From NCBI GenBank assembly GCA_963805085.1, contig CAWDTA010000002.1:96001-160000 (forward strand): a stretch of DNA of 64,000 nt, read 5' to 3'. The notes beneath the pieces are model-generated. The model was not told where the DNA came from. It did not search any database and saw only the letters and a program-made list of their open reading frames with translations. This document shows, in pieces, positions 3,305 through 47,635 of this stretch. The stretch's first letter is position 1. Each line of letters begins with the position of its first letter. Source of the stretch: an uncultured Veillonellaceae bacterium (GTDB lineage Bacteria; Bacillota; Negativicutes; JARBTT01). Both the position numbers and the translations under genes were made by a program.

Positions 3305-3354
3305 TACTAATCAAATTCCTTTCTGTAAAATAGAAAATATATGATCTTCATATC

Positions 3355-4434: not shown

Positions 4435-4458
4435 CCTTTTTATTCACCCACAAACTTT

Positions 4459-5304: not shown

Positions 5305-5381
5305 CTACCAAATCAACGAAAATACCCCTTATAAAATAAAACGCAAAGAAATATCCTAAGCCATTTCTTTACGATTTATTA

Positions 5382-6317: not shown

Positions 6318-6324
6318 CCACTAC

Positions 6325-7413
6325 CTATTCATTGTAATTGTGTACTTCAAAACCATGCTTTTCACATAATAAATCACGTTTTGCTGTTGCCAAATCTTCT
6401 TTTACCATCATAGAGCATAGCTCTTGCAATGTGGTTTTCGGCTTCCAGCCTAATTTTTTTTGAGCCTTCGTTGCATCCCCTAACAACAATTCTACCTCTG
6501 TTGGACGAAAATAACGTGGATCAACTTCAACTAAAACATTACCAGTTGCTTTATCAATACCTTTTTCTGCGATGCCTATACCCTGCCAAGAAATTTCTAT
6601 ACCAACTTCTTTAAACGCTAGCTCCACGAATTCTCTAACCTTATGCGTTTCACCAGTTGCAATAACAAAATCTTCAGCATGCTCTTGTTGTAATAACAGC
6701 CACATTGCTTCCACATAATCTTTCGCATAACCCCAGTCCCGTTTCGCACTTAAATTTCCTAGATAAAGCTTATTTTGCAATCCAAGATTAATTCTTGCAA
6801 CAGCTCTAGTAATTTTACGAGTAACAAAAGTTTCACCCCTACGTGGTGATTCGTGATTAAATAAAATACCATTACATGCATAAATGCCATAAGCCTCACG
6901 ATAATTTACTGTAATCCAATAACCATATAATTTCGCAACCGCATATGGGCTACGTGGATAAAACGGAGTAGTCTCTTTTTGTGGAGTTTCTTGTACTAAC
7001 CCATATAGTTCACTTGTAGAAGCTTGATAAAATTTAGTTTTCTTTTCTAATCCTAAAATACGAATAGCTTCAAGAATTCTTAAAGTACCTAATCCATCAG
7101 CATTAGCAGTATACTCTGGTGTCTCAAAAGAAACTTGAACATGACTTTGTGCAGCTAGATTATAAATTTCATCTGGTTGTACCTCTTGAATAATGCGAAT
7201 TAAATTAGCAGAATCAACCATATCCCCATAATGTAAAAAGAAACTTACATTATCCTCATGTTGATCCTTATATAAATGATCAATTCGATCCGTATTAAAT
7301 TGAGATGCACGTCTTTTAATTCCATGGACTTCATAACCTTTTTCCAAAAGAAATTCTGCAAGATATGCTCCATCCTGCCCTGTAATACCCGTAATCAATG
7401 CTTTTTTTTTCAT
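6325..7413 (-). CDS. gmd: GDP-mannose 4,6-dehydratase
   Basis: [28 protein letters not shown] and GILFNHES motifs. Confidence 0.97.
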
Positions 7414-7601: not shown

Positions 7602-8678
7602 CTAAGGAACTAACAATTTAATCACAGGTACTTTTTTAAGAATACAAACAAAGAAAGAACTCAGCAAAGTAATTGCAACTGTTGTTACTGGAATGAATAC
7701 TGCAGGATTATAAGTGTAGCCATTCAACTTAAAACCCAAAATGCCTGAATCAAGTATTGCCATAACTAATAAATGCACAAGATATATACCAAAACTTAAC
7801 TTACTACTAAAATAATTTATGATATTAACAACCACTTTAAATTTATCAATTGATAGATTATTATTAATATAAATAACAACAATAATAAAACTAATAGTCA
7901 TAAAAACAATATTCATGGATAAATAACCGTAAAAAAACTCATCTAAAATTCCATTATTTGATACGGTCATATAATAAGTAGAAATCATAGTAAATAAAAC
8001 ATTACTGACAAACACCAACAGCGCTATTCTATAACATTCAATAGAAACTTTGTACAAACTATCGATATACATACAACGTAATTTATACCCAACAATTAAA
8101 TACCCTAAATAGCCACTACCAAATTCCAAATGAACACCTACTGGATACCCAAATTTAGATAAAAGCGGAAAAACGCAATAAAACCAAAACCAAATGCTAA
8201 TAAAATAATTAATATTTATTTTATTAGCATTACAAATGTAAATATTTATTATTGGTAATATTAAATATATCCCAATAATTGTATAAAGAAACCACAAGTG
8301 ATATGCATTTGATATTTTTCCATTCAAAATATTTTAAAATAAACCTAAAACATCCAAACTTTGATCATTCCAATAGACAAAATACAAACTATATATAATT
8401 GACCACCCAATTAAAGGTATCACTATTTTAATCACTCTTTTATATAAAAAAGCTTTTAAATTATTATAATCAGATTGCTTGCCTAACATTAATGCACCTG
8501 TTAACACAAAGAATAAAGGTACACAAATTCTTGAAATAGAATCATAAAAATTACTAAACCACCACCACTGTTCAGTAATCTCATTATATCTAAAAGCATT
8601 TATACATGCCACATGCTGTAGTATTACTAACATAAAAGCAATCGTTCTAATTAAATCTAAAACAAAAATTCTATTCAT
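7602..8678 (-). pseudogene. Acyltransferase-3 (WecH/YiaH-like) O-acetyltransferase with single in-frame stop
   Basis: The ORFs at 8334-8708 and 7602-8327 are in the same frame, separated only by TAA at 8334-8336. Motifs DLIR..A..LVI..H, CVPLFF, YHLWFLY and SFGIYLVH. Confidence 0.85.
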
Positions 8679-8824
8679 AAAATACCTACCTAATAAAATT
8701 AGTTGCACTATTTATACCGATTTGCAATATTTTTCGCCAAATCTTGAATTGACATTTTAGAACATTCCTACCCTCCATAGGCCCAAATAACAAGTAACAT
8801 TGCTACGAACCAAAAGGACATACA

Positions 8825-9919
8825 TTAAAAATTTGTTAAAAACCACCTTACTTTTTTTAACATTTCAATTGCTTTATTAGGCAAATTTCTTTTCATAAAA
8901 CGCTTAACTGAATATTTTAAATTAAGTTTTTTCCAATTTACGATTGTTTCAATTACTGTTTTTTCCCTAATGATTCTTATAATTATAGGTGCAGCAATAA
9001 AATTAAATATTTTTTCTTTATCCTCATGCCACTTTTCAATGCCATTTTGAATAGTCCTACGTGCATTATTTTGCACATTCATAACATCATTAAAATCAAT
9101 TTCAACAGGATCTTCTAATGAAAATAAATACCCATTTTCACCATGTTTGATATACTCATTCATTGTTGGTGCATCAATTGCTATTACAGCTTTCCCCATA
9201 GCCATAGCCTCTAAAAATGAAAAGCCAATTCCTTCTGTCAATCGAGGAGCGATATAAATATTATATTTATTCATTTCTGCAATATATTCATTTCTCGTTG
9301 TAAACCACGAACTATATGTTATATTAAATCGTTCCTCATCTACCTTACTTGGTACTAAAAATTTATGTTCCGGATCCATAGCTTTATGAATATGTACTTT
9401 ATTAATTTTTTGACTACCTATGAGATTTTTTATTATTTTCCAATTAAACTCCTCGCGCCGATTCCAAAAAAACAATGAATTTTCTTGTTTTATCACATCT
9501 TGTGGTTTTATATCAAATTTGTAATCCGGAAAATATTGAATATAAAAAGATTGAAATCCCATTTTGCATGTCTTCGCATGCAATGTTCTACTAAAATTAA
9601 CAATTTTAACATTTACGATATCTTGCCAAAATTGCAGTGGTGCTAATATACTTGCATCATACATAGGAATAAAAATAATATTTGTACATTTATCTCTGAT
9701 AGTATTTACTGCTTCCGGATAAATATTTTGCCAAAAAATCACTGCATAATAATTTTCATCAATCTGGCTTACATCTAATGTTTCTCCACTACACCAACTC
9801 ACATCCCATATAACTTCAACAATATATTTTTTCTTTAAAAAATTAATAAAAAACTCACTTGATTTTGTTTTTTGATGATAAGAATGATCTATAAACGCAA
9901 TTTTTTCCATAAACTTCAA
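8825..9919 (-). CDS. GT-B glycosyltransferase (GT4-like)
   Basis: C-terminal EGIGFSFLEAMAMG motif. Confidence 0.8.
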   Translation of the reverse strand: MKFMEKIAFIDHSYHQKTKSSEFFINFLKKKYIVEVIWDVSWCSGETLDVSQIDENYYAVIFWQNIYPEAVNTIRDKCTNIIFIPMYDASILAPLQFWQDIVNVKIVNFSRTLHAKTCKMGFQSFYIQYFPDYKFDIKPQDVIKQENSLFFWNRREEFNWKIIKNLIGSQKINKVHIHKAMDPEHKFLVPSKVDEERFNITYSSWFTTRNEYIAEMNKYNIYIAPRLTEGIGFSFLEAMAMGKAVIAIDAPTMNEYIKHGENGYLFSLEDPVEIDFNDVMNVQNNARRTIQNGIEKWHEDKEKIFNFIAAPIIIRIIREKTVIETIVNWKKLNLKYSVKRFMKRNLPNKAIEMLKKVRWFLTNF

Positions 9920-9933
9920 CCTTTTTATTTATA

Positions 9934-11046
9934 TTATAATCCAAGACGTTTTCTTTGATAATATTCTACAACACCATATGGCAGAATCATTTTTATCATT
10001 CTACGCCATGACATTCTTTTCTTAACCTCATTCGAAGATACAAAAACATCACGCTTATCAATAAAATTTTTTAATAACCATTGAATTAGATATTGTTTTT
10101 CTATTTTTGTATTCTGCAAATCAGGTATTAATTTACTAAGTATTTCACAAAACTGTTCCCGATTAAACTTATTTTTCCATCTTAATTCTACAAACGCTAA
10201 AGCGTCCTCCTTAGACAAGCCATAGTGATACTCTACTAGAATATTACACATATTGTCAATAGAAACAGCTTGTTGTATTGCTGAAGCTCCAACAATTTCA
10301 TAATAGTAAACAGGATTTTTCACTTCACATCCTATAAAATTATTATCAATTAATTTCAACTGCATTTTAAAATCAGCAGCAATTGTATATTTCTCATCAT
10401 AATAGCCAATTTTTTCATACGCTTCATGAGAAATAAACATCGTTCCATGGTTACATGGACTTAATTCAAAAAATGCCGATCCATCTATAAACTTAGAAAC
10501 ATGTGATCCAATAGGAGTACCATCCTCTTTAACTACTATAGCTTCTCCATAAGAAAAATCAGCTTTATATTCCAACAATGATTGAACAGATTCTTCAATC
10601 GTATTCTTGGAATACCAATCATCAGAATTTAAAATTGCTATAAAATCTCCAGTTGCTAAAGACAGTCCCTTATTCATTGCATTATAAATTCCAGTATCTT
10701 TTTCCGATACATAGTAGTCAATAGCATTTTCATATTTTTTTATAATATCAAGCGTGCCGTCGGTACTACCACCATCAACTACAATATATTCGACATTATT
10801 ATACTTTTGATTGAGGACTGACTGAATCGCTCTTTCAAGTTTAGACGCCCTATTAAAAACTACAGTAATCACACTCACTAACGGTTTTTCTTTGTTTCTT
10901 TCTTTAAATTTTCCTACTAGTCGTAATCCACCTTCTGCCTTTCGTAAATAGTCAGTAAGTGGATATCTTAAATATTTACCACAAACATGATTAACCGCAA
11001 CATTAGATTCATATAATACAATAGATTTCTGCGTGGAATACCCCAT
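9934..11046 (-). CDS. Glycosyltransferase family 2 (WcaE-like)
   Basis: VSVIT, VDGGSTDGT, GIYNAMNKG and LNSDD motifs. Confidence 0.9.
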   Translation of the reverse strand: MGYSTQKSIVLYESNVAVNHVCGKYLRYPLTDYLRKAEGGLRLVGKFKERNKEKPLVSVITVVFNRASKLERAIQSVLNQKYNNVEYIVVDGGSTDGTLDIIKKYENAIDYYVSEKDTGIYNAMNKGLSLATGDFIAILNSDDWYSKNTIEESVQSLLEYKADFSYGEAIVVKEDGTPIGSHVSKFIDGSAFFELSPCNHGTMFISHEAYEKIGYYDEKYTIAADFKMQLKLIDNNFIGCEVKNPVYYYEIVGASAIQQAVSIDNMCNILVEYHYGLSKEDALAFVELRWKNKFNREQFCEILSKLIPDLQNTKIEKQYLIQWLLKNFIDKRDVFVSSNEVKKRMSWRRMIKMILPYGVVEYYQRKRLGL

Positions 11047-11085: not shown

Positions 11086-12756
11086 TTATCTTTTTCGCAC
11101 GCTTTCTATTTTACGCTTTAGTGCTTTAATCCACCAAGATATAGTAAACATTTTTTTGCGTTCATTTTTTAACCATTCATGCATTCTAGCCTTCTTTATA
11201 GTGATTCTATTTAGAGTTTTTTGCAACAAATTTTTTTCTTCTTCAATCTTATTTATTCTTTCTTGCAAAGCAATACTTGATTTACGTTCATTTATTAACA
11301 AATCTCGCTCTGATACAAGTTTATCTAACCACTCTTGCATTCCAGCCTTCTCTATGGTGATTCTATTTAAAGTTTCTTGCAACAAATTTTTTTCTTTTTC
11401 AAGTTCATTCATTCTTTGCTGAGAAATAATACTCGATTTGCATAACAACTCCGCTAAAGCACTCCCCACTTCGGGGAATATAGTTGTTACTGGAGGTATA
11501 TCCTTCTGAGTAAATTTAGTTTGTTTTATTAAATCAAAAAACAACTCACCATAACTTGCAGCTTGCCTAGATTGAGCAAAGAACTCCTCGGCACATCTGC
11601 GGCAATTATCTCCTAAAGACCTCACAAATAAAACTTCTGCTAACTTTTCTGCGAATAAACCTGTATCTTTTAAAGGAACTATATATCCAGTTTCACCATT
11701 TAAAATGAAGTCAGGCATCCCTCCAAAATCAAATGCCACCACTGGAGTGCCACAAGCAAAAGACTCTAAAATAATATTTGGTAAGTTATCTTCTAAGGAT
11801 GGTAAAGCAACTACATCCGCAGCTGAATATGCTAAGGCCAATCTTTCATCATTATCAATAAATCCCATGGCGACATAAGGAATATCCAGTTTTCTTAAAT
11901 CTTCTGACTCCTGGCCAAAAGTCAGTATCGCAATTTTTTGTTTTCCAATTGATTCCTTAAGTTCACTTCTTTCTTTTAAATCGTTCATTGCTGCTAACAG
12001 CTCCAAAAATCCTTTTCTACGTTCACCATGATTTTCGGCACCAAATAAAATAACTTTAGTATCTTCTGAAAAGTTAAACGTCTGTTTAGCTTGCTTTTTA
12101 CCATATGGTCTAAAAACATCTAATTCAACAGAATTAGGAATAACTTCAACACGGTTATTTTTAAAAACTGCACTTTTAGTTGCACATTCCGCCAACCACT
12201 TACTCGGTGTAACAACAACTAAATCTTTAGGCATATACTTAACTTTTGCCTCTAAAAGAACTCTTGGAAGATTTAATGTATTTGATTTCATCTGAGGGCA
12301 TTTATTACAATCAACTAAATAACGATCACATCCATGCACATAATGACATGCCCCTGTCATTGGATTTTGATCATGCAATGTCCAAACCAATGGTTTTTTA
12401 ACGTAGTCTAAATCTGCTATTGCCTCTAAAGAAACAAAGCTAGCAATCCAATGTAAATTCACTAAATCATAATCATAAAGTAATTCTCTAAAATCAAAAT
12501 TTAAACTTGGATACATAAAAGAAAGCATTGTACTTCCTTGAAATATATTAGAATAAAAATTTTCTTGAGCAATATTTTCAATTAACAAATTATTAATTTC
12601 AGGCGCATTTATTTGTTTAACATACTCTAAATTTGTTTTTTTATATTTTACAAATAAATCTGCAGCTATGTCCCTTTGCCTTAATGCTTGTCCTAACCGC
12701 AATGCAGCCCGTGCTGCTCCACCATAATCATTAGTACTAAGTAAAGCAACCTTCAC
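11086..12756 (-). CDS. GT4 (WcaC-like) glycosyltransferase with C-terminal coiled coil
   Basis: GGAARAA, WTLHD, C-x-Y..GC..C..CP cluster, EDNLPN..LES motif, heptad-rich tail. Confidence 0.88.
   Translation of the reverse strand: MKVALLSTNDYGGAARAALRLGQALRQRDIAADLFVKYKKTNLEYVKQINAPEINNLLIENIAQENFYSNIFQGSTMLSFMYPSLNFDFRELLYDYDLVNLHWIASFVSLEAIADLDYVKKPLVWTLHDQNPMTGACHYVHGCDRYLVDCNKCPQMKSNTLNLPRVLLEAKVKYMPKDLVVVTPSKWLAECATKSAVFKNNRVEVIPNSVELDVFRPYGKKQAKQTFNFSEDTKVILFGAENHGERRKGFLELLAAMNDLKERSELKESIGKQKIAILTFGQESEDLRKLDIPYVAMGFIDNDERLALAYSAADVVALPSLEDNLPNIILESFACGTPVVAFDFGGMPDFILNGETGYIVPLKDTGLFAEKLAEVLFVRSLGDNCRRCAEEFFAQSRQAASYGELFFDLIKQTKFTQKDIPPVTTIFPEVGSALAELLCKSSIISQQRMNELEKEKNLLQETLNRITIEKAGMQEWLDKLVSERDLLINERKSSIALQERINKIEEEKNLLQKTLNRITIKKARMHEWLKNERKKMFTISWWIKALKRKIESVRKR
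11155..11440 (-). repeat. 156-bp (52-codon) imperfect tandem duplication in coiled-coil tail
   Basis: KSSIISQQRMNELEKEKNLLQETLNRITIEKAGMQEWL versus KSSIALQERINKIEEEKNLLQKTLNRITIKKARMHEWL. Matching DNA at 11327 and 11171. Confidence 0.9.
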
Positions 12757-12876
12757 TTTATCACCACATCTCCAATTTTATAAAACGCTTATATTTTAAA
12801 TTTTAGTAATTCTTAATTTAATAATCAATCTGCATATTATTTTTTGATTTTTCCATAACTGTAGAATTTAATCTCT

Positions 12877-15069
12877 TTATTCTACGCACCACTTACCTTT
12901 AATTTTATCATTGAGTACCCTTTCCCCATTACTCTCTATTTCCTGCAACGATACTATTTTTTCCATTTCATTTTTTTCTTTTAAAAGCTGAAAAATTTTT
13001 CCTCCACCTGTATAATCAATAGCAATATATGGTACTTGCAATATATTAGCAAACAATACCGAATGAAATCTCATACAAAGATTATATTCTGCTGATTGCA
13101 TATTTTGACTTATACTTTCAATCGTCGATAATTTTCTTTCTATATAATACTCATATCCTTGTAAATATCTTTCGGCGAAAGATAAATTAAAATCTCTATC
13201 GTCATTTCCAATAACAAAATTATGCATAGCATAAAAATGAGGAATTAAATTTTCTTTTTTAATTAAATATATAATATTTTGTGCAAGTCTTTCCTCAAAA
13301 TTTCTTTTAAAAACATCAAATTCTTCTGGACTTTTATTGCCTCTATATTCATATGTTATTTCCCTTAAAAAGCAAGCTAGCTTTCCCTTTTTGGGCTTTA
13401 TATCATTCAATTTATACTTTTTTATAAACTGAACTGCTGGATCGCCAATATTATGCAAATTAAGCTCTGAAATCCCAATTTTTTTAGCATAAATTACAGA
13501 AGCCTCATCTCTCAAATTCACCTCGTTGGCAAATTCTAATATTTCTTTAACAGCTTGTTTTTTATCTTCCGTATACAATGGACCTATACCGCATCCATAA
13601 ACAGTTCTTTTTCTGCTATACTCTTTTGCAATAAAAAATGCCCACTGAATTAAACTCAGTTCTTCTAATTCCATAAGTGGGCCGCCGCCAACAACAACTT
13701 CATCTACTGAAGCACACCATTCAAAATATAGCTGACTATATACAGGAACAACTTTAACATTCCCATCAACATTCAATTCTCTCAAAGTTCGTTCAGTAAT
13801 GAATGGATATAATGAACTTACCCCTATACACAAATCTTTCCCATATTTTCTTTTATAGTCATCAATAACCTGCCCTAATATAGCTTTATCGCCAACAGTT
13901 TCTGTTCCATACCAACCAACAATCAAAATAGTAGGCGCACCAAACTCTTTCATATTTATTACAACATCATTTTTTTTACTTTTGTATGCTTGTATTGAAA
14001 AAAAGTTTTTATATTTATTTTGCTTTTCCAACACTTCTACTAATTGTTGCTTTGGGGCATCATGATAGTCATGAATACATTTTAAACAATATTTTTGTTT
14101 TATTGTTTCAAGTTCAATCAAATTTTTAGAATAAATATTTACGCCTCTATCTTGCAATAAATTTCCTATAACTGGTGATTTAGGTGCACAGTACGCCATA
14201 CCACCATGACAATCTAAATTTATTGCAACCCCATTTTTATATGGACATTCTATAGCTCGCTCTTCCCCCCTCAACATTCTCTTGATATTTCTATATGTAT
14301 TTAAAATCCCCTCATTTTTTTCATAACTATATTCCAATTTACTAAAAAACAGTTCTAGCTGATAAATTTCATCATCAGAAAAATTTCTAATGTACTGTTT
14401 ATTTTCTTCACAATCATTATCTAACCGATTAATGAATTCGCCTATTCTAAATCTACCTTCAATATTTTTTTCTTTCAAAAATAGTAATAATTCATCTAAT
14501 CCCCATACATTTTTTTTGGTCGCCGTGGCTCCAATTGTAAATTGAATTTTATTCTCTTGCAAATAAGAAATCACTTTCATTACTTGCTCAAAATTTCCTT
14601 TACGACCTCTATTTAAATCATGAAAAGTCCTAACACCATCTAATGAAAGCATAATAACAAAAGATTTTTCCTTTTGAAGCGATATACTACGAATTTTATC
14701 AATACTTGCTATAACTTTTTCAGGCGCTAGACAATTTGTAATTAAACTAGTTCCTTTCAAATTAGGCAAAGTCTCCATCGCACATAGAAAATACTCTGAT
14801 AAATCTTCAACTAAAGTAGGCTCGCCACCTGTAATTCCTATATGTTCTATATTTTCAAACAAAGAATCATCTAAAATTTTTTCAAATTCTTTCAGCGACA
14901 AATAAGAGTAATCCTTTTTCTTCCACACATTACACATCACACAAGCTGAATTACAAAAATTATTTACCTGATAATTAATTACTTTTAAATTATTAACTAT
15001 CTGTTTTTCTTGAGGTGTGGCTTTATGAAAATATTTATTACACAAATTTGAAAAAGCTTTTTTTATCAT
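12877..15069 (-). CDS. Radical SAM (Cys-rich SPASM/twitch-like) - polysaccharide pyruvyltransferase (CsaB/WcaK-like) fusion
   Basis: CNSACVMC and TGGEP, downstream Cys cluster, then GWYG...GD.AI, GGG, GCGIG, RD, DPA and MRFHS motifs. Confidence 0.85.
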   Translation of the reverse strand: MIKKAFSNLCNKYFHKATPQEKQIVNNLKVINYQVNNFCNSACVMCNVWKKKDYSYLSLKEFEKILDDSLFENIEHIGITGGEPTLVEDLSEYFLCAMETLPNLKGTSLITNCLAPEKVIASIDKIRSISLQKEKSFVIMLSLDGVRTFHDLNRGRKGNFEQVMKVISYLQENKIQFTIGATATKKNVWGLDELLLFLKEKNIEGRFRIGEFINRLDNDCEENKQYIRNFSDDEIYQLELFFSKLEYSYEKNEGILNTYRNIKRMLRGEERAIECPYKNGVAINLDCHGGMAYCAPKSPVIGNLLQDRGVNIYSKNLIELETIKQKYCLKCIHDYHDAPKQQLVEVLEKQNKYKNFFSIQAYKSKKNDVVINMKEFGAPTILIVGWYGTETVGDKAILGQVIDDYKRKYGKDLCIGVSSLYPFITERTLRELNVDGNVKVVPVYSQLYFEWCASVDEVVVGGGPLMELEELSLIQWAFFIAKEYSRKRTVYGCGIGPLYTEDKKQAVKEILEFANEVNLRDEASVIYAKKIGISELNLHNIGDPAVQFIKKYKLNDIKPKKGKLACFLREITYEYRGNKSPEEFDVFKRNFEERLAQNIIYLIKKENLIPHFYAMHNFVIGNDDRDFNLSFAERYLQGYEYYIERKLSTIESISQNMQSAEYNLCMRFHSVLFANILQVPYIAIDYTGGGKIFQLLKEKNEMEKIVSLQEIESNGERVLNDKIKGKWCVE

Positions 15070-16452
15070 TTATTTAACATCCTTATCTAAAACATCAAAA
15101 TTAGCACTAATATCCATATCAACTAATGCATTTAACTCCACACCATCTTTTCTTTCTAACACCCGAAAAGCAAAACCATTTAACTCTCTTGCATAAAAAA
15201 CTTCTTGATAATCTTCAATACCCACCACACCGCATTTCAAAAAATATACATCTTGTATAAATTTACACACAAAACTAAATTGAACTTTTATTATAGTTCC
15301 AGCCTTTACAAAAGGAATTCCATTTCCAGCTTTTGCAGTTCCACACCCCGTAACTTCTATTCCTGTTTTTGTTTTGATCAACATTCCAAAACGTACATTA
15401 GTGCAATTCTCAAGGAACTTTACTTTATAACTAAAAGTATATCTACGCCCAAAATTCAGTATATTTATAGGAACACCTTTTACCCCTACCATTTTATAAT
15501 CATAGATTTTTGCCTTTTGGTTTTCATATGAAACGACTTCATTTTTAATCAACAATGAATCATCGAAATATTCTTGATCAAAAACCACTTCCTCTTGCGT
15601 TTCCAAATTGAATTCATTAGTTTGTATAACATTTGATTGTTTTTCTTTTGGATTTTCAAAGACAATGTCTTTTTTTTCTTTCAGTTGTTGACGTATTTCC
15701 TTCACTTTTTCTTCGGGAGCAAACAACATTTTCTGATATAAATTAACTACTTTTTCACTTTTTCCTTCTAATAATTTTTCTCCTTGATCAATCCATATTG
15801 CCCTATCGCATAATTCTATAATACTGCTTCCTGAATGAGATACAAATAAAATCGTTTTTCCTTCATTTCTAAATTTATTTATCTTACCAAAACATTTATT
15901 CTGAAATAAATCATCACCAACAGATAATGCCTCATCTATGATAAGAATCTCTGGATCTACGTTAATTGCAACCGAGAATGCTAATCGTACAAACATTCCA
16001 CTCGAATACATTCTTACTGGCTGATAAATAAAATCTCCAATATCCGCAAACTTTACAATTGCATCAACTTTGTTCTTCATTTCTTCATGAGTATATCCCA
16101 TAATTGTTCCGTTTAGATATATATTTTCCATACCAGTCATCTCTGGATTGAAGCCCGCACCCAATTCTAATAACGCAGATATCTTACCACTCGTCTCAAC
16201 AATTCCAGATGTCGGTGTTAGTACATTTGTCAATATTTTTAATAACGTAGATTTTCCTGCTCCATTTTTTCCAATAATACCAATAATTTCACCTTTTTTT
16301 ATTTCAAATGAGATATTGTTTAGCGCATAAAAATTCTTACTATATTTTTTCCAAAACGGATTTAATGATTCTTTTAACCTATCAATTGGTTTATCATATA
16401 ATTTATAAATTTTTGATAAATTATCAACTTTTATTGCAATTTCATTATCCAT
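15070..16452 (-). CDS. wzt: O-polysaccharide ABC transporter ATPase with C-terminal Wzt-C domain
   Basis: GKNGAGKST, YSSGM, IIDEALSVGD motifs, ~190-aa C-terminal extension. Confidence 0.92.
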   Translation of the reverse strand: MDNEIAIKVDNLSKIYKLYDKPIDRLKESLNPFWKKYSKNFYALNNISFEIKKGEIIGIIGKNGAGKSTLLKILTNVLTPTSGIVETSGKISALLELGAGFNPEMTGMENIYLNGTIMGYTHEEMKNKVDAIVKFADIGDFIYQPVRMYSSGMFVRLAFSVAINVDPEILIIDEALSVGDDLFQNKCFGKINKFRNEGKTILFVSHSGSSIIELCDRAIWIDQGEKLLEGKSEKVVNLYQKMLFAPEEKVKEIRQQLKEKKDIVFENPKEKQSNVIQTNEFNLETQEEVVFDQEYFDDSLLIKNEVVSYENQKAKIYDYKMVGVKGVPINILNFGRRYTFSYKVKFLENCTNVRFGMLIKTKTGIEVTGCGTAKAGNGIPFVKAGTIIKVQFSFVCKFIQDVYFLKCGVVGIEDYQEVFYARELNGFAFRVLERKDGVELNALVDMDISANFDVLDKDVK

Positions 16453-16461
16453 AGTTTCCCC

Positions 16462-17271
16462 CTATAATACATCGGCAAAATGTGGACGTAATTTTTTAAA
16501 TGCAATTCCACCTATGAGCATTATTAATATAGTCACTACCCAATAATATAAAGAAAGCTCTCCATCTTGCCAAAACCATTTTTCATAAATAAACGAATTT
16601 CTATACCCTTCAATAATATAATAGCCTGGATTTAAATACAAAAAAGCAATATATTTTTCTGGTATCGTTTTTAAGCTCCAAAAAATAGGAGTTCCCCAAA
16701 ATCCAAATTGCAATATCATAGCAACAACTTGTCCTATATCTCTTAAGAATACAACTAATGCGGATGTCAACCAAGACAATCCTAAAAGCATACATATCAT
16801 TGCAAAAACATAATACACTACCTGCAAATTATATATTGTTGGCATATACCCATACAAAGCAAACATAAACAGCAAAATCAAAACAAAAAATATATGTACA
16901 ATAAATGCTGAAATAATCTTCACTATAGGTAACAAGCTAACTCTAAATACAACTTTTTTTACAAGATAACTATTTTCCACTATTGAATTTGTCGCCGAAC
17001 TTAAACTATCTGAGATAAAAAACCACGGAAACATTCCACAGACCAGCCATAAAATAAACGGAAAATTATCAACAGGTATAGATTTAAAACCTACTTGGAA
17101 AACAAACCAAAAAATCAGTATAGTAATTGTTGGTTGAATAAATGCCCACATAATGCCTAAATAGGATCCCAAATATCTTTGCTGAAAATCTTTTTTTGTC
17201 AATTCCCATAATAGTCTACGACTTCTTATTATATCAATTACAAATGATAAAAATAACTTTATATATCTCAT
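16462..17271 (-). CDS. wzm: O-polysaccharide ABC transporter permease
   Basis: RYLGSYLG..W, LVKKVVF, TPIFW, NP and HFADVL motifs, six TM segments. Confidence 0.93.
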   Translation of the reverse strand: MRYIKLFLSFVIDIIRSRRLLWELTKKDFQQRYLGSYLGIMWAFIQPTITILIFWFVFQVGFKSIPVDNFPFILWLVCGMFPWFFISDSLSSATNSIVENSYLVKKVVFRVSLLPIVKIISAFIVHIFFVLILLFMFALYGYMPTIYNLQVVYYVFAMICMLLGLSWLTSALVVFLRDIGQVVAMILQFGFWGTPIFWSLKTIPEKYIAFLYLNPGYYIIEGYRNSFIYEKWFWQDGELSLYYWVVTILIMLIGGIAFKKLRPHFADVL

Positions 17272-17276: not shown

Positions 17277-18122
17277 CTATCCTTTTATTTCTTTTAAATA
17301 TCTGACAACCGCATTCTGCCAACTAGGTAATCTATTAAATTCCTTATTATCTAAGCACTCCTTACTCAACCTAGAATTCAATGGTCTCTTTGCTTTCGTT
17401 GGATATGCAGAGCTTGGAATATGATTTACTTTTGTATTATAACCGGCTTGTCTGAATATTTCTTCTGTAAACTTCGCCCAAGAACAAATTCCTTCATTCG
17501 TTGCGTGATAAGTACCATATTTATCGCTAACTGCCATTTCGCATAAAAGCTTAGCTACATCAGCAGTATAGGTAGGGGAACCAATTTGGTCGGCAACGAC
17601 GTTGAGTTCTTGACGCTCTTTTCCTAGTCTAAGCATAGTTTTTACAAAGTTGTTACCATTGATACCAAATACCCAAGAAATTCGCATAATGAAGTGTTTT
17701 TCTAAGATAGCTTTGACTGCATTTTCGCCTTCAAGTTTCGTTTGTCCATAAACGCCAAGCGGGCCTGTTTTGTCATCGACTTCATAGAAATTTTCTCCTG
17801 TACCAGGGAAAACATAATCCGTACTGATATAAATCATTTTCGCATCAATAGCTTTACATACTTTTGCGATATTTTCAGTGCCATTTACATTAACCTTACG
17901 ACACTGTTCCGGTTCATCCTCCGCTTTGTCGACCGCTGTGTAAGCAGAGCAATGAATAACTACATCTGGCTCATAGTTTGTAATAAATTTATTTGTTGCT
18001 TCAAAGTCTGTAATATCAAACTCGGCACGCCCTGCACCTACACAATCAAGATTGCGTACGTTAAGTGCTTTTATCACATCATATCCTAGTTGTCCGTTTA
18101 CGCCAGTTACTAATACTTTCAT
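17277..18122 (-). CDS. rmlD: dTDP-4-dehydrorhamnose reductase
   Basis: VTGVNGQLG, STDYVF, YGQTK, DQIGSPT. Start set at ATG 18122. Confidence 0.95.
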   Translation of the reverse strand: MKVLVTGVNGQLGYDVIKALNVRNLDCVGAGRAEFDITDFEATNKFITNYEPDVVIHCSAYTAVDKAEDEPEQCRKVNVNGTENIAKVCKAIDAKMIYISTDYVFPGTGENFYEVDDKTGPLGVYGQTKLEGENAVKAILEKHFIMRISWVFGINGNNFVKTMLRLGKERQELNVVADQIGSPTYTADVAKLLCEMAVSDKYGTYHATNEGICSWAKFTEEIFRQAGYNTKVNHIPSSAYPTKAKRPLNSRLSKECLDNKEFNRLPSWQNAVVRYLKEIKG

Positions 18123-18183
18123 ATAGACACTCCCTGAAAAATAAAATATACGACAAATGGGCGTATATGATACGCCCTTAATT

Positions 18184-19203
18184 TTATCTATTACTATACA
18201 TTTTTTCGTAGTAATCTTGGTATTCACCACTGATGATACGTTCCCACCAGTCTTTATTATCTAAATACCAGCGGATCGTTTTCTTGATGCCTTCATCAAA
18301 TAACGTTGTTGGTGCCCAGCCTAATTCTTTTTGCATTTTTGTTGGATCGATGGCATAACGCCGATCATGCCCTAAACGGTCAGAAACATATTCGATGAGG
18401 CTTTCATCTTTGCCTAATTCACGAAGGATCGTTTTTACTACTTCTAAATTCGTACGTTCGTTATGTCCACCGATATTATATACCTCACCAACTTTACCAT
18501 TATGGATGATCAGGTCAATTGCTGAACAATGATCTTCGACATATAACCAATCACGTACGTTTTTACCAGTGCCATATACAGGCAGCTTTTTATTATTTAA
18601 TGCATTCGCAATCATTAGCGGAATTAACTTTTCGGGAAAATGATATGGTCCATAATTATTAGAACAACGAGAAATCGTCGTTGGCAGTTTATAAGTACGA
18701 TTATAAGCTTGTACCACCAAATCAGCCGATGCCTTGGAAGCTGAATATGGACTAGAAGTATGTAGTGGTGTTTTTTCCGTGAAGAATAACTCTGGTTGAT
18801 CTAATGGAAGATCACCGTAAACTTCATCTGTCGATACTTGATGGTAGCGTTTAATACCGTATTTTTTACAAGCATCAAGTAATACACTCGTACCGATAAC
18901 ATTGGTTTGTAGGAAAATTTCTGGATTTTCAATAGAACGATCCACATGACTTTCTGCCGCAAAGTTAACGATGATATCTGGTTTTTGGGTTTCAAAAAGG
19001 TTATACACAAAAGCTCTATCCGCAATATCACCTTTGACAAAAGTAAAGTTTTGATTATCCATGACTGGTGTTAAAGTTTCCATATTACCAGCATAAGTTA
19101 ATAAATCTAAGCAGATTATTTTATATGTAGGATGTTGTTTGAGCATATAGTGAACAAAGTTACCACCAATAAAACCTGCTCCACCAGTTACAATTATTTT
19201 CAT
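18184..19203 (-). CDS. rmlB: dTDP-glucose 4,6-dehydratase
   Basis: TGGAGFIG, AAESHVDRS, STDEVYG, YSASK motifs. Confidence 0.97.
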   Translation of the reverse strand: MKIIVTGGAGFIGGNFVHYMLKQHPTYKIICLDLLTYAGNMETLTPVMDNQNFTFVKGDIADRAFVYNLFETQKPDIIVNFAAESHVDRSIENPEIFLQTNVIGTSVLLDACKKYGIKRYHQVSTDEVYGDLPLDQPELFFTEKTPLHTSSPYSASKASADLVVQAYNRTYKLPTTISRCSNNYGPYHFPEKLIPLMIANALNNKKLPVYGTGKNVRDWLYVEDHCSAIDLIIHNGKVGEVYNIGGHNERTNLEVVKTILRELGKDESLIEYVSDRLGHDRRYAIDPTKMQKELGWAPTTLFDEGIKKTIRWYLDNKDWWERIISGEYQDYYEKMYSNR

Positions 19204-19206
19204 AAT

Positions 19207-19773
19207 TTATTTCGCTCCCTCGTAAACAAAGTTTAAATTGGTACGTTCTTTTAACAATTGTGCATTTTTATCTTTTTCTGAAAGAATAAATTCACCTTCA
19301 CCCCATTCTACTCCGATATCTGGGTCATTGTATAGGATGTTACCATCACATTCTGGTGCATAGTAGTTATCTGCTTTATATTGGACTTCAACATCATCGG
19401 TCAAAGTAACGAAACCATGAGCAAAGCCTCGCGGAATAAATAATTGCTTTTTATTTTCTGCGGATAATTCAACAGCTACCCATTTTTTATACATAGGCGA
19501 ACCTTTTCTAATATCTACAGCAACGTCTAAGATAGCCCCTTTACTGCAACGTAGCATTTTGGCTTGGCACTTTGGATTCAATTGATAATGAAGTCCGCGA
19601 AGCGTACCTTTTTGCGCAGAGAACGATTGGTTATCCTGTACGAAATCACATTCAATTCCCGCTTCCGCTAATTTTGCTTTCGAATAACTTTCCATAAACC
19701 AACCACGATGATCACCGAAGACTTGCGGTTCTATAATATATACATCTTTTAACTTTGTTTCTGTTACTTTCAT
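19207..19773 (-). CDS. rmlC: dTDP-4-dehydrorhamnose 3,5-epimerase
   Basis: D.RG.F.E, QDN.S, LRGLHYQ and GFAHGF motifs. Confidence 0.97.
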   Translation of the reverse strand: MKVTETKLKDVYIIEPQVFGDHRGWFMESYSKAKLAEAGIECDFVQDNQSFSAQKGTLRGLHYQLNPKCQAKMLRCSKGAILDVAVDIRKGSPMYKKWVAVELSAENKKQLFIPRGFAHGFVTLTDDVEVQYKADNYYAPECDGNILYNDPDIGVEWGEGEFILSEKDKNAQLLKERTNLNFVYEGAK

Positions 19774-19786
19774 CTATACTATCCCT

Positions 19787-20662
19787 CTATTTCTCTTTTA
19801 CTAGGTTAATCAAGTATTGCCCATAATCATTTTTCTTTACTGGCTCGGCAAGTTTTAGCACTTGCTCTGCACCAATATGCCCCATCCGGTATGCAATTTC
19901 TTCGATACAAGCTATTTTTAGGCCTTGACGCTGCTCTACTGTTTGCACAAAAGTAGAAGCCTGTAGAAGTGATTCATGCGTTCCTGTATCCAGCCATGCA
20001 TATCCCCTGCCCATTGTTTCCACTCGTAAATTTTTCTGAGCAAGATAGACCTTGTTTACATCGGTAATTTCTAGTTCTCCGCGTGCCGATGGTTTGATAT
20101 TTGCTGCGATATCAACAATTTGATTATCATAGAAATATAGACCAGTTACGGCATAATTTGATTTAGGTTCAGTTGGTTTTTCCTCTAAACTAATAGCTGT
20201 ACCCTGCTTATCAAATTCCACAACGCCATACCGCTCCGGATCTCTAACGTAGTAGGCAAAAACAGTCGCGCCATCCGTATTACTAGTTGCTCTTTGCATT
20301 GCCGATGCTAAAGTATGCCCATAAAAAATATTGTCACCTAAAACAAGTGCACAGCCATCATTGCCGATAAACTCTTTACCGATAATAAAGGCTTGTGCCA
20401 ATCCGTCTGGGCTTGGTTGTACCGCATACTGAATGCTGATGCCCCATTGACTGCCGTCTTGTAATAAAGCTCTAAACAATTCCACATCTTGCGGTGTTGT
20501 GATGACTAAAATATCGTTAATCCCTGCTAAAAGTAAGGTACTCAATGGATAATAAATCATTGGCTTATCATAAATCGGCATCAATTGCTTACTAACGACT
20601 TTTGTTAGTGGATATAACCGAGTTCCTGATCCACCTGCTAGTATAATTCCTTTTTTTATCAT
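19787..20662 (-). CDS. rmlA: Glucose-1-phosphate thymidylyltransferase
   Basis: [26 protein letters not shown] and WLDTGT motifs. Confidence 0.97.
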
Positions 20663-20716
20663 TTACTCTCTCTCCCAACACAAAAATTATTACAAATAAC
20701 AAAATATAGTGTTCTG

Positions 20717-22225
20717 CTAGTATGCACCTTTGCTGCCAAACACCACTCTGATTGTTTTAATAAGTAAAATAATATCCTGCCAAACTGACCAGTTTCTAAC
20801 ATACCAAGCATCTAAACGTAATCGACCAGTAAAATTTATTTCATTTCTTCCACTCACTTGCCATAGTCCAGTAATTCCCGGAACGGTTTGGCAAATAGTA
20901 TTGATATAATACCCCATATTCTTTCGCTCCCGAGGCAAATATGGTCTGGGACCAACTAAGCTCATACTTCCCTGTAGCACGTTAATAATCTGAGGCAATT
21001 CATCTAGGCTATATTTTCTCATCCAATTTCCCACTTTAGTTACTCTCGGATCAAAAGTTCGCAGTTTAGCAAATTCAGCCCATTCCTGATGAGCTTCTTC
21101 ATTCTGATTTAAATAATCTTTAAGTACTTTATTACTATTGATATGCATCGTTCTAAATTTATAGCATGAAAAATTTCTTTGTCCTCTTCCAATCCTTCTG
21201 GCAATATGAAATATAGGTCCTTTCGAATCATACTTTATCAAAACTACCAATAAAAAAAGAATTGGTAACACAAAAACAAATATAATACTTCCTATACAGA
21301 TATCAAACAAACGCTTAATAATTTTATTTATTGGCAGCTCTAAATTGTTTTTCGTTTTAAGCATGACCAATCGATCATCAATGAATCGCTCCGCTTCGAT
21401 ATTTGCAACTGGTATGCCAAACAAATCTGGAACAATGGTTAAATTTCTCACATAGGGCTGTACTCTTTGCATGAGAGATATCAGCTTTTCGCGTTCTAAG
21501 CCTGGAGTTGCAAGAATCACATCATTTACCTTACTATCAATAATTGCTTTTTCTAGATTTTCAAACGTTCCTATATGTGGATATTTCTGGATTAACGGAC
21601 GTTCATCATAATAGTCTTCTACCAGTCCAACAATTTTGTAGCCAATACCTGGCTCATTTTCAAATGTTCTAGCAATGATTTCTGCCGTTTTTCCAGCGCC
21701 TACAATGACAACTGGACGTTGCCATAAATTCAAAGTATGCAATATTTTTTTTGAAAATTGCCTAAATACACAAAGATAAAAAAAACTGAGGATCCATAAG
21801 GTCGCCATAAACAAGCGTGAAACAATAGCAGAACTTCCTACTAGATAAGTAATCAGAATAACCAATGCATTCACATAGATACAAGTTTTAAATAAAATTT
21901 CTGCACACTGCCAAAAAGGCATTCTTTTATTATACATATCGCCATAAGCAATAAATAAAATAAAGACAGTAGGAAATATAATATATGCGTAAATATCGCC
22001 GATATAGAGAATTGACGCATTGTTTCCTGACCATAAAACAATAGCAATATTTCTAATACTTTTTGCGCTTATTACTGCACAAATAATTGCAATATAATCT
22101 ACTACAATCAATAAAAATGGTGCTAAATAATAACTTAAATATTCTATTAATTTTTTTTGTTTATTTATTGCAACTGATTTTTCAAAGCCCACTACATACC
22201 TCATCCTCACAACTACTAATAACAC
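20717..22225 (-). CDS. wbaP: Undecaprenyl-phosphate hexose-1-phosphate transferase (WbaP-like)
   Basis: N-terminal TMs, KRLFD, YKFRTM, SLDELPQ, SLVGPRP and PGITGLWQVSGR motifs. Start uncertain (GTG 22192 possible). Confidence 0.9.
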   Translation of the reverse strand: MLLVVVRMRYVVGFEKSVAINKQKKLIEYLSYYLAPFLLIVVDYIAIICAVISAKSIRNIAIVLWSGNNASILYIGDIYAYIIFPTVFILFIAYGDMYNKRMPFWQCAEILFKTCIYVNALVILITYLVGSSAIVSRLFMATLWILSFFYLCVFRQFSKKILHTLNLWQRPVVIVGAGKTAEIIARTFENEPGIGYKIVGLVEDYYDERPLIQKYPHIGTFENLEKAIIDSKVNDVILATPGLEREKLISLMQRVQPYVRNLTIVPDLFGIPVANIEAERFIDDRLVMLKTKNNLELPINKIIKRLFDICIGSIIFVFVLPILFLLVVLIKYDSKGPIFHIARRIGRGQRNFSCYKFRTMHINSNKVLKDYLNQNEEAHQEWAEFAKLRTFDPRVTKVGNWMRKYSLDELPQIINVLQGSMSLVGPRPYLPRERKNMGYYINTICQTVPGITGLWQVSGRNEINFTGRLRLDAWYVRNWSVWQDIILLIKTIRVVFGSKGAY

Positions 22226-22238
22226 ACATCAATAATAA

Positions 22239-24694: not shown

Positions 24695-24777
24695 ACCTTC
24701 ACCACCAGTTAGCATTTTTGCAAGATATTTAAACTTAACTAAAGAATAGGTGATTGTACTAGTAATGTCAAGCTCCG

Positions 24778-24820
24778 AAAGCAATTAGAGCTTGTAACAG
24801 ATACAAGCTCTAATTGCTTT
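24778..24820. terminator. 19-bp perfect inverted repeat, terminator-like
   Basis: AAAGCAATTAGAGCTTGTA-acaga-TACAAGCTCTAATTGCTTT. Confidence 0.75.
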
Positions 24821-47621: not shown

Positions 47622-47635
47622 TACTAAGTTTTAGC

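Follow-up and report, generated by a model that had tools for sequence, protein, structure and literature searches.

In the Wzm/Wzt O-polysaccharide locus studied here, a 730-residue fusion of a radical SAM (rSAM) domain with a PS_pyruv_trans pyruvyltransferase-type (PvT) domain probably makes the end cap that allows a surface sugar chain to be exported. More specifically, we lean, with modest conviction, toward a reading in which this fusion and the GT4 glycosyltransferase encoded beside it build a chain-terminating cap that is read by Wzt. A terminator role is suggested because elimination leaves no other terminator candidate in the operon and because of context statistics across related loci. 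The locus lies in a window of 64,000 nucleotides, the whole stretch of DNA that was analyzed, from an uncultured Veillonellaceae bacterium (Table 1). An earlier note on this DNA, which had proposed an anaerobic capping or modification chemistry that licenses export, is partly supported by these results.

Table 1. Features of the O-polysaccharide locus and neighboring genes, by position in the window
Feature	Position	Strand	Basis and remarks
rSAM-pyruvyltransferase fusion ORF	12877-15069	(-)	Open reading frame, 730 aa
Fusion N-terminal half, residues 1-369	13963..15069	(-)	Radical SAM core and four-Cys auxiliary-cluster motif
Fusion C-terminal half, residues 370-730	12877..13962	(-)	Predicted PS_pyruv_trans domain (GT-B-like, PEP-dependent pyruvyltransferase)
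wzm, ABC-2 permease of O-polysaccharide exporter	16462..17271	(-)	Pfam ABC2_membrane E 2.7e-19; NCBIfam galactan Wzm/KpsM-like, below cut-off
wzt, ATPase with C-terminal carbohydrate-binding domain, 460 aa	15070..16452	(-)	Pfam ABC_tran 2.2e-24; Wzt_C residues 308-435, E 2.2e-22
GT4 partner, 556 aa	11086..12756	(-)	Pfam Glyco_trans_1_4/Glycos_transf_1/Glyco_transf_4; candidate chain-terminating transferase with ruler
GT2 glycosyltransferase, candidate polymerase module	9934..11046	(-)	Pfam Glycos_transf_2 3.8e-33; syntenic in L001-L005
GT4 glycosyltransferase, candidate polymerase module	8825..9919	(-)	Pfam Glycos_transf_1 9.7e-14; synteny
Acyl_transf_3 O-acyltransferase, broken by one in-frame stop	7602..8708	(-)	Two Pfam half-matches; stop visible in translation
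GDP-sugar genes and two more GTs	1928..7413	(-)	Pfam
gmd	6325-7413	(-)	Pfam
fcl-like epimerase/reductase	5382-6317	(-)	Pfam
GT2	4459-5304	(-)	Pfam
GT4	3355-4434	(-)	Pfam
manC	1928-3304	(-)	Pfam
Block of rmlD, rmlB, rmlC, rmlA and the two genes below	17277..23147	(-)	Pfam
Bac_transf-type initiating phosphoglycosyl transferase	20717-22225	(-)	Pfam
GT2	22239-23147	(-)	Pfam
Wzy_C-family O-antigen ligase (WaaL-like)	32672..33850	(-)	Pfam Wzy_C 2.8e-24; inside LPS core block, GT9 and GT8 genes either side

The two-domain reading made earlier from the letters was borne out by Pfam, with both matches above cut-off: Radical_SAM (PF04055) at residues 34 to 182 (E 3.4e-15, 57 bits versus 29.5) and PS_pyruv_trans (PF04230) at residues 424 to 686 (E 3e-23, 83.6 bits versus 25.3), the latter covering model positions 33 to 278 of 280. 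The CxxxCxxC motif reads as C39/C43/C46 and GGEP occupies residues 81 to 84; with this cluster motif, the Pfam score, and the GGE-type motif, the protein is a member of the radical SAM superfamily. Additional cysteines lie at 275, 287, 294, 328, and 331. Across 30 aligned homologs, C287 varies, but C39, C43, C46, C275, C294, C328, and C331 are invariant, and so is the SAM-binding motif G81 G82 E83 P84. C275, C294, C328, and C331 form a four-Cys motif that is followed by CIHDYH and is preserved in a split homolog. Profile matches of the N-terminal half to PDB entries were to SkfB (1.5e-18), BlsE (1.5e-11), MoaA, and anSME. The HMM scan proposed earlier recovered Radical_SAM, PS_pyruv_trans, and Wzt_C but, for SPASM (PF13186), gave no Pfam match in the fusion at E ≤ 0.01; with four invariant extra cysteines versus the seven of the SPASM motif, the protein has neither of the features, domain or seven-Cys motif, that define that subfamily. 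The four cysteines would suit a twitch enzyme, in which a shortened C-terminal domain holds a single auxiliary Fe-S cluster; the best NCBIfam radical SAM match, N_Twi_rSAM, scored 56.5 bits against a cut-off of 170.

Catalytic-type invariant motifs are present in both halves of the fusion. Those of the C-terminal half, judged over 25 to 30 homologs, are TxGD (391-394), R520xxxS524, R667-x-H669, and a GGK end. It is nevertheless conceivable, if improbable, that this domain is a GT-B-like scaffold or some other transferase and that all the chemistry belongs to the radical SAM half, which might act on a nucleotide sugar ahead of its transfer. The fusion falls below the cut-off of the CsaB equivalog TIGR03609 (76.6 versus 213.1 bits), GDP-sugar genes recur near the module, and the PvT half had no significant match in the PDB by single-sequence or profile search, the best being Pvg1p (5ax7, E 0.46). 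Set against this are the nearly full-length Pfam match and the invariance of Rxxx(S/T), RxH, and the GGK end. Furthermore, the weak Pvg1p alignment, which spans the RxH...GK stretch only, places R667 opposite the Arg of the Pvg1p DRLH stretch, which we take, only after adding an N-terminal offset to the chain numbering, to be the PEP-binding R337. Of the family motifs given in PMC10629545 (NxGD, Rxxx(S/T), and His), two match in the fusion; the first appears as TxGD, with Thr for Asn (a mapping by motif pattern, not structural alignment), which favors the alternative, whereas the mutual identity of known pyruvyltransferases, as low as 14% in the same paper, counts against it.

The fusion belongs to a large family, with 362 clusters at 50% identity matching at E ≤ 1e-30. 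In a list of the top 120 database proteins, the query among them (41 to 56% identity, 679 to 885 aa), both Pfam domains occur in 118 and PF04230 alone in 2. Because both domains recur together so consistently, the fusion is real and not an assembly artifact, which answers the earlier concern that the ORF might be an artificial join. The family spans more than 10 phyla, many aerobes included, and is frequently met in cyanobacteria, Flavobacteriaceae, and Alteromonas; the idea of a specifically anaerobic chemistry was not upheld. No paper on an rSAM-PvT fusion was found in the literature searched, and the word "radical" is absent from a 2019 review of glycan pyruvylation; Xanthomonas papers mentioning both "radical SAM" and "wzt" proved irrelevant to the fusion. 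An ESM Atlas search returned only generic stand-alone radical SAM clusters, and a search of sequencing runs listed no RNA dataset and two DNA runs that contained only 0.06 to 0.07 of the words.

Genomic relatives numbered 190 after confirmation, and 80 of these were used for the locus survey. A GT4 gene lies directly 3' of the fusion in 51 of the 59 loci tested and a GT4 cluster was found in 73 of 80. This trio (rSAM, PvT, and GT4) stays constant across loci in which the polymerase genes differ. The trio is also found within single, much longer proteins. All 35 long relatives (1304 to 3535 aa) have PS_pyruv_trans (PF04230) and GT4 families, and 32 of them also have Radical_SAM. Six of them were scanned: five follow the order rSAM-PvT-GT4-TPR/GT2/methyltransferase, as does L021, and in the sixth, P0140, the rSAM region was under the scan threshold, yet it aligns with the query at 29-711. 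The parts beyond the GT4 are mostly TPR and GT2 or methyltransferase. A split relative retains the gene order rSAM, PvT, GT4, GT2.

A constant trio beside varying polymerase genes could also mean that the trio builds a reducing-end primer or adaptor, as WbdB and WbdC do, rather than a cap, and GT4 enzymes form the adaptors in E. coli O9a. We regard this as very improbable. If an adaptor sugar carried a bulky ketal, chain extension would tend to be blocked; pyruvylated sugars usually stand at the end of the assembled unit (as in xanthan, colanic acid, and succinoglycan); and a ruler-like tail and a position adjoining wzt are unlike an adaptor.

Some of the evidence for reading the fusion and GT4 as makers of a cap comes from the window itself. 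The locus was correctly recognized in the earlier note as a Wzm/Wzt O-polysaccharide locus, here that of a diderm: Wzm stands beside a Wzt with Wzt_C, an initiating polyprenyl-phosphate transferase and an O-antigen ligase are encoded, and the window also holds Lpt (LptF/G), LpxK, heptosyltransferase, and WaaL genes. The extension noticed at the C terminus of Wzt proved to be a Wzt_C domain scoring 80 bits. The closest solved chains to this Wzt, 8dku and 7k2t, are listed as "ABC transporter" and align over the nucleotide-binding part only; they are presumably Aquifex aeolicus Wzt. As noted earlier, wzt and the fusion abut with zero gap, because the wzt stop TAA directly precedes the fusion ATG. 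Besides the broken acyltransferase, the fusion is the only tailoring enzyme in the operon other than glycosyltransferases. Methyl-, sulfo-, and phosphotransferases are absent from this operon and from the syntenic loci L001, L002, and L004, and the Pfam scan detected no WbdD-type kinase or methyltransferase domain in the fusion or the GT4. All four of these operons have a canonical Wzt_C (54 to 96 bits) and contain no other terminator candidate. Synteny extends to gmd, fcl, and manC (with the fusion in L001, L002, L003, and L005) and to the GT2 candidate polymerase module, whose homolog is fused to a GT4b homolog in L001, L002, and L005.

Among the 64 loci with at least 5 kb of upstream DNA, a Wzt-like ATPase is nearby in 45, on the same strand and upstream within 3 kb in 40; it is adjacent to the fusion (<100 bp) in 20 loci. 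Of 56 Wzt ORFs near fusions, 54 are at least 395 aa long, and 30 have Wzt_C at E ≤ 1e-6. Homologs are, with these 45 of 64 loci, strongly linked to a Wzt with a C-terminal extension, but it is the GT4 rather than Wzt that is the conserved partner. A Wzt-like ATPase is absent from the DNA covered in 19 of the 64 loci. Five of these Wzt-less loci were examined, and each relies on another route: L020, L006, and L030 have Wzx-type flippases, L062 has a Maf flagellin-glycosylation island, and L066 has an MsbA-like ABC exporter. The sole relative from the window's own class sits in a Maf/NeuB cluster. In 19 loci, wzt and the fusion are separated by other tailoring genes that are possible terminators: 8 loci have a sulfotransferase and 7 have methyltransferases, and PhyH and hexapeptide acyltransferases also occur. 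On a FastTree phylogeny of 63 fusions, the Wzt/no-Wzt label changes at least nine times. Because the module is also present in Wzx-type and flagellin-glycosylation loci, it is best described as a portable tailoring unit.

Clustering of Wzt C-terminal domains (36 of 56 in one BLAST cluster) was considered as a sign of one conserved cap and was rejected as weak, because distant members are 12 to 24% identical and the window domain lies outside the cluster. Likewise, a profile built from the C-domain type most often seen next to fusions does not recognize the window Wzt C-domain. Among the points that we count against the cap reading are that the module is not tied to Wzt, the label changes on the tree, the intervening tailoring genes, this position of the window C-domain outside the commonest profile, and the scarcity of ruler-like GT4 tails outside Bacillota.

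The same data leave a real, though minority, chance that the module modifies each repeat unit at an internal or side-branch residue and is no terminator, with Wzt_C binding the backbone or another feature, or with length set by the ratio of transporter to synthesis. Wzx-type loci and flagellin-glycosylation islands have no polymer end to cap, the 19 loci offer alternative terminator candidates next to wzt, the context label is labile on the tree, and the WbbZ pyruvate is described as only diversifying the antigen. Decoration fits less well with the window operon, L001, L002, and L004, where canonical Wzt_C occurs with no other candidate; with the giant fusions, in which the trio occupies one end and a TPR spacer separates it from the GT2 modules; and with the coil and basic-helix layout of the GT4 partner, which marks the terminator proteins of every characterized system.

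That layout is found at the end of the GT4, where a stretch of ~120 residues contains no more than one Pro/Gly per 28-residue window, is 40 to 50% charged, and includes two ~45-aa repeats, with a basic C-terminal helix. The earlier note described this next gene as a GT4 with a long coiled coil. Pfam bears out the GT4, and the tail is indeed Pro/Gly-poor and charged; a crude heptad power scan was not striking, and "coiled coil" is here a putative term based on composition and ortholog comparison. In Wzt-linked Bacillota orthologs the tails are coil-like and vary from 101 to 207 aa, closing with a basic helix that has a conserved S(K/R)SW; they measure 101 aa in L004 and 207 aa in L002, against 141 aa in the window. 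By a crude filter, no ruler-like tail was seen in most non-Bacillota loci. The ruler-like tail belongs to the GT4 and occurs only in the Bacillota clade and in two cyanobacterial loci.

From the domains, motif conservation, gene order, co-occurrence, and fusion statistics, we infer a pathway in which the fusion would be the tailoring half of a conserved three-activity module. The partner GT4 would put a sugar on the undecaprenyl-linked glycan at the cytoplasmic face, and the PS_pyruv_trans domain would then move the three-carbon unit of PEP onto that sugar, by way of an enolpyruvyl ether to a pyruvate ketal. The putatively twitch-type radical SAM domain would perform one radical step on the same residue; because the auxiliary cluster appears fully Cys-ligated, a redox step such as dehydrogenation is suggested. 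In the Wzm/Wzt locus of the window the modified sugar would be the non-reducing end cap, halting polymerization by the GT2/GT4 polymerase and, once bound by the Wzt C-terminal domain, licensing export, with the variable-length helical tail and basic end helix of the GT4 serving as ruler and membrane anchor. In its broadest form the proposal is tentative, and we would not bet on it: that the trio installs an undescribed PEP-derived substituent on lipid-linked glycans in more than 10 phyla, that in Wzm/Wzt loci it constitutes a new class of export-licensing terminator, and that the radical step, on the enolpyruvyl or ketal group or on the carrier sugar, leads beyond a simple pyruvate ketal, perhaps to an oxidized, decarboxylated, reduced (lactyl-type), or C-C-bridged product.

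To our knowledge, few chemistries end ABC-transporter-dependent glycans (methyl, phosphomethyl, Kdo, and pyruvate), and radical SAM enzymes that act on lipid-linked polysaccharides have hardly been studied. The fusion family is large, its catalytic motifs are conserved, its partner glycosyltransferase is constant, and it is also built into giant synthases. Once worked out, its product would probably prove to be a sugar modification new to glycobiology, and the fusion would then serve as a marker gene for predicting that modification in the glycans of O antigens, S-layers, and flagellins; the six-gene cassette of L004 and the window is compact and suited to reconstitution.

Among known systems, CsaB, WcaK, and Pvg1p share Pfam PF04230 with the fusion, which exceeds the gathering score and aligns to Pvg1p over the basic RxH...GK stretch; the fusion differs in scoring below the CsaB cut-off, in being joined to a radical SAM domain, and in its TxGD motif. 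The twitch/SPASM enzymes SkfB, BlsE, and anSME are matched by profile, and the fusion has one extra four-Cys motif C-terminal to the core, with a spacing (Cx18C...Cx2C) that we take to be much like that of BtrN; it departs from the twitch/SPASM group in its SPASM and N_Twi_rSAM results.

A chemical precedent for pairing the two activities, with no homology claimed, is offered by PolA/NikO and PolH/NikJ of polyoxin and nikkomycin biosynthesis, in which PEP-dependent enolpyruvyl transfer to a sugar hydroxyl is followed by radical SAM C-C cyclization to octosyl acid (PMC5365060). PolA has the MurA fold rather than PF04230, PolH has one cluster only whereas the fusion has a second four-Cys motif, and their substrates are nucleotides instead of the lipid-linked glycans proposed here.

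The pyruvate cap foreseen earlier does have a precedent in WbbZ of Klebsiella pneumoniae O1, whose PEP-dependent terminal pyruvate ketal stops polymerization in vitro (PMC10629545). WbbZ and WbmX, terminal pyruvyltransferases of ABC-dependent O-polysaccharide systems, are, like the fusion, of PS_pyruv_trans type; WbbZ acts before export at the non-reducing end and shares the Rxxx(S/T) and His motifs, with no sequence similarity detectable between it and the fusion. As there described, WbbZ has a single domain, no radical SAM half, and no obligatory GT4 partner. Its O1 transporter is described as having no carbohydrate-binding module, and its cap as dispensable for export, which we also count against the cap reading; the window Wzt has Wzt_C.

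A shared logic is seen in WbdD (E. coli O9a and K. pneumoniae O3 and O5), WbbB (O12), ORF6-O7, and ORF7-O4 (PMC11231755 and PMC3482155), where a cap-making terminator has a helical spacer whose length is fixed and a membrane helix at its C terminus, and works with a Wzt that carries a binding module. Their catalytic domains are unrelated to the fusion (kinase/methyltransferase, or GT99 or GT137 Kdo transferases), and the spacer here sits on the GT4, where its ruler role is predicted, not on the fusion. The Bacillota GT4 tail, with its coil-like character, variable length, and basic end helix, fits the WbdD layout (PMC11231755), and the giant relatives, in which the trio, TPR, and GT2 follow one another, mirror the terminator-spacer-polymerase arrangement of WbdD-type systems.

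The Pfam gene content of the window fits its description as an O-polysaccharide locus (see table); G+C is 0.27-0.32 over 8-16 kb versus 0.35-0.39 further along. Its LPS genes and SLH-domain proteins mark the organism as a diderm that has both LPS and outer-membrane anchors of SLH type, a combination known from Negativicutes-like Bacillota. The SLH paralogues look like OmpM-type outer-membrane tethers. The stop in the Acyl_transf_3 gene means either that it is a pseudogene or that an error arose in sequencing, and O-acylation of the polysaccharide may have been lost. One 824-aa ORF joins two consecutive lipid A steps, and a 265-aa ORF between the O-antigen and core blocks resembles a fused MNT-HEPN toxin-antitoxin-like unit.

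Features of the window, with Pfam content
Feature	Coordinates	Strand	Content
O-polysaccharide block (every gene on one strand)	1928-23147	-	manC, GT4, GT2, fcl-like epimerase/reductase, gmd; Acyl_transf_3 gene in two pieces; GT4, GT2, 556-aa GT4; 730-aa fusion, then wzt, wzm; rmlD, rmlB, rmlC, rmlA; Bac_transf initiating transferase and GT2
O-acyltransferase	7602-8708	-	Acyl_transf_3 with a single in-frame stop
Partner GT4	11086-12756	-	556 aa
Fusion	12877-15069	-	730 aa; Radical_SAM, residues 34-182; PS_pyruv_trans, 424-686
265-aa ORF	23987-24784	-	Polbeta/NTP_transf_2 nucleotidyltransferase and HepT-like/NTase_sub_bind
Polysialyltransferase-like gene	26303-27397	-	A-2_8-polyST (E 2.4e-15); edge of LPS core transferase block
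SLH paralogues	46012-50943	-	three proteins (427, 435, 374 aa), each with an N-terminal SLH domain
Kdo transferase-LpxK fusion	60438-62912	-	824 aa; Glycos_transf_N (Kdo transferase), residues 33-215; LpxK, 470-813
Genes further along the window			GT9 heptosyltransferases, GT8 enzymes, Wzy_C ligase, LptF/G

The earlier note described a radical SAM-pyruvyltransferase fusion with zero gap to a C-terminally extended wzt, and these features held up: the 730-aa frame is open, both domains exceed their Pfam cut-offs, the ATG directly follows the wzt stop codon, and Wzt carries Wzt_C at 80 bits. In an alignment of 30 homologs, the radical SAM Cys triad and GGEP are invariant, as are C275, C294, C328 and C331 followed by CIHDYH, and all seven Cys are kept in a split relative. 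Invariant elements of the pyruvyltransferase half are GWYGTETxGDKAIL, GGGPLM, GxGxGP, R520-D-x-x-S524, D543, R569, DDR, M-R667-x-H669 and DYTxGGK. Both halves look catalytically intact on these signatures. For glycan pyruvyltransferases, Kelly et al. (PMC10629545) list three common motifs, NxGD, Rxxx(S/T) and a His, and they give R217/R337 as the PEP ligands of Pvg1p; in the fusion family, Rxxx(S/T) and the His do not vary, and TxGD stands in place of NxGD. Against the PDB, the C-half profile matched Pvg1p (5ax7) best, at only E 0.46, in a weak alignment placing cmRfHs...DYTxGGK opposite DRLHAH...GK; the N-half profile matched SkfB, BlsE, MoaA, anSME and viperins.

The fusion belongs to a protein family and is no chance event. 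Among 7999 candidates scored in a word-indexed search, 969 were relatives at E≤1e-3, with both domains in 118 of the best 120 listed, and HMMER against 1.84 billion representatives gave 5266 matches at E≤1e-3 (1260 at ≤1e-10, 362 at ≤1e-30), with most of the top 150 being full-length. Screening one genome per species confirmed 190 loci; the 80 kept include Bacillota, Bacteroidota, Planctomycetota, Cyanobacteriota, Chloroflexota, Verrucomicrobiota, Acidobacteriota, Bdellovibrionota and Pseudomonadota (Alteromonas, Thiotrichaceae, Zetaproteobacteria). Many of these carriers are aerobic, so the "anaerobic chemistry" once suggested is not a family property. Occurrence is patchy: one of 40 relatives in the window's class has a match (genome G019, where it is split), as do 3 of 121 genomes in one Bacteroidota family sample. 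Some fusions are extended at the N terminus, by a piece like the C-terminal domain of sugar C-methyltransferases (Methyltransf_14) in L003:9584-12151 and proteins P0008/P0012, or by an unassigned stretch of ~300 aa in P0124, P0126, P0127 and P0123. No NCBIfam model reached its cut-off for the fusion, and NCBI names of members are generic only. A search of the main text of open-access papers found none on such a fusion, and "radical" is absent from a 2019 review of pyruvate substitutions.

The proposed association with Wzt is strong but not obligatory. Where 5 kb or more of upstream sequence was available (64 loci), a Wzt-like ATPase was present in 45 (codirectional and no more than 3 kb upstream in 40, within 100 bp in 20) and absent from the sequence examined in 19. 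Nearly all Wzt-like ORFs are C-terminally extended (54 of 56 have at least 395 aa), and 30 of the 56 match Wzt_C at E≤1e-6. No single tight C-domain type emerges beside the fusions: 36 of 56 form one BLAST single-linkage cluster, whose distant members share only 12-24% identity. The window's C-domain groups only with those of loci L001, L002 and L005 and was missed by a profile of the large cluster. Between wzt and fusion lie 33 ORFs in 19 loci, including sulfotransferases (8 loci), methyltransferases (7), PhyH dioxygenases, hexapeptide acyltransferases and one Acyl_transf_3. In 16 loci, L013, L014, L018, L045, L047, L053 and L074 among them, there is a ~305-315-aa protein, often encoded immediately before the fusion, with no Pfam match at 1e-5, an invariant EDD and many invariant Trp; it resembles a GT-A-type transferase of an undescribed kind.

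Five Wzt-less loci were examined. L020 combines Wza and Wzz with a Wzx-type flippase, L006 and L030 have Wzx-type flippases, L066 has an MsbA-like exporter, and the Alteromonas locus L062 is a Maf/NeuB island for flagellin glycosylation. The G019 module likewise sits in a Maf/NeuB cluster, and the module may decorate protein-linked glycans too. Both islands, L062 and the G019 locus L086 (G019:C1:393000-412900), are of flagellin-glycosylation type, with PseB/PseC-like, NeuB, CMP-transferase and Maf/MptE-like genes. On a FastTree tree of 63 fusions, which excludes 17 loci with short flanks or odd ORF lengths, the Wzt/no-Wzt label requires at least nine changes. Since both Wzt-linked and Wzt-less contexts occur, the family's predicted general job is adding and elaborating one sugar; the pathway would then decide whether that sugar forms a chain end.

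The GT4 is the most constant partner. It lies directly downstream in 51 of 59 cases tested (of 78, 19 truncated or near-duplicate ORFs being dropped), the other eight ORFs being four methyltransferases, an ABC-2 permease, an acyltransferase, an oxidoreductase and a sulfotransferase. When 1208 ORFs from 80 loci were clustered, the fusion family occurred in 79 loci, GT4 in 73, Wzt and GT2 in 53 each and Wzm in 45. A search for longer proteins returned 35 (1304-3535 aa), all with PF04230 and GT4 families and 32 with PF04055 by precomputed annotation; hosts include Desulfosarcina sp. BuS5 and Opitutus sp. ER46. Five of six scanned have the order Radical_SAM-PS_pyruv_trans-GT4; in P0140 the radical SAM part is under the scan threshold, yet query residues 29-711 match. 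TPR repeats occur in five of the six, after GT4 in P0124, P0123, P0148 and L021 and near the C terminus in P0126, and GT2, methyltransferase or sulfotransferase modules are added in P0126, P0123 and P0148. L021 is a MAG ORF of 1861 aa or more, interrupted within its GT4 part by a 10-N scaffold gap, and continues after its TPR with three GT2s. In G019, which holds the sole match in the window's class, the halves are encoded by two separate neighboring genes, with GT4 and GT2 next in line. This recurrent fusion in fixed order argues that the three activities would act on one substrate. The giants P0123, P0126, P0128, P0148-P0150 and P0156 (2973-3535 aa) are single-chain glycan synthases combining the three domains with TPR, several GT2s and methyl- or sulfotransferase domains. 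Separately, 24 of 47 partner GT4s carry a four-Cys N-domain motif, CHYx3Cx6Cx2CP (residues 137-153 of the window's GT4, alignment A4), which may be a structural metal site.

In BtrN and anSME, a second cluster with four Cys ligands accepts an electron during substrate oxidation. The fusion has a comparable four-Cys auxiliary motif, unlike PolH, which has one cluster only (PMC5365060), and this likeness favors a redox radical step. Our first guess, favored because of that motif and the adjoining invariant HD, is ketal or enolpyruvyl transfer before or after radical dehydrogenation of the same sugar. Ranked second, the PEP-derived group itself would be the target of the radical. There are two precedents: PolH cyclizes 3'-enolpyruvyl-UMP made by PolA/NikO (PMC5365060), and BlsE decarboxylates a sugar acid (PDB title). 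Third, radical epimerization might create the cis-diol required by ketal formation.

For the window, the best reading, which we hold with moderate confidence, is that GT4 and fusion make a predicted chain-terminating cap read by Wzt. Its fusion falls in a six-member Bacillota clade (100% support, FastTree) with syntenic loci, wzm-wzt-fusion-GT4-GT2-GT4, and gmd, fcl and manC close by; L004 is this six-gene cassette bare. L001, L002 and L005 carry the last two transferases as one dual-GT protein (735-770 aa), the usual polymerase format, and L001 additionally has a Wzy_C-type ligase. The clade's Wzt proteins have canonical Wzt_C (54-96 bits). No methyl-, sulfo- or phosphotransferase was found in L001, L002, L004 or the window's operon, which therefore leaves the fusion as sole candidate cap-maker there.

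The "GT4 with a long coiled coil" reported after the fusion is indeed a 556-aa GT4 with a ~120-residue tail; the coil is read from composition (nearly Pro/Gly-free, 40-50% charged, two ~45-residue repeats, a closing basic helix). The Wzt-linked GT4 tails measure 101 aa (L004), 141 (window), 183 (L001, L005) and 207 (L002), all charged and Pro/Gly-poor with a conserved S(K/R)SW basic helix at the end. The L003 tail is not coil-like, and L003 has no Wzt within the sequence examined; the remaining 41 partner GT4s (396-442 aa) are tail-less. Among the partner GT4s, a crude filter picked out ruler-like tails in L001, L002, L005, L054 and L061 only.

According to Kelly et al. (2024, PMC11231755), the terminator of every characterized system lies at the far end of a protein with a coiled-coil ruler; WbdD has a catalytic domain, a coiled coil and a C-terminal amphipathic helix, and the O4 terminator a TPR-like bundle. 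The window's partner GT4 would fit the WbdD layout, judging its tail from composition, and the giant relatives repeat the terminator-ruler pattern with TPR. For WbbZ, a terminal pyruvate ketal halts polymerization in vitro (PMC10629545).
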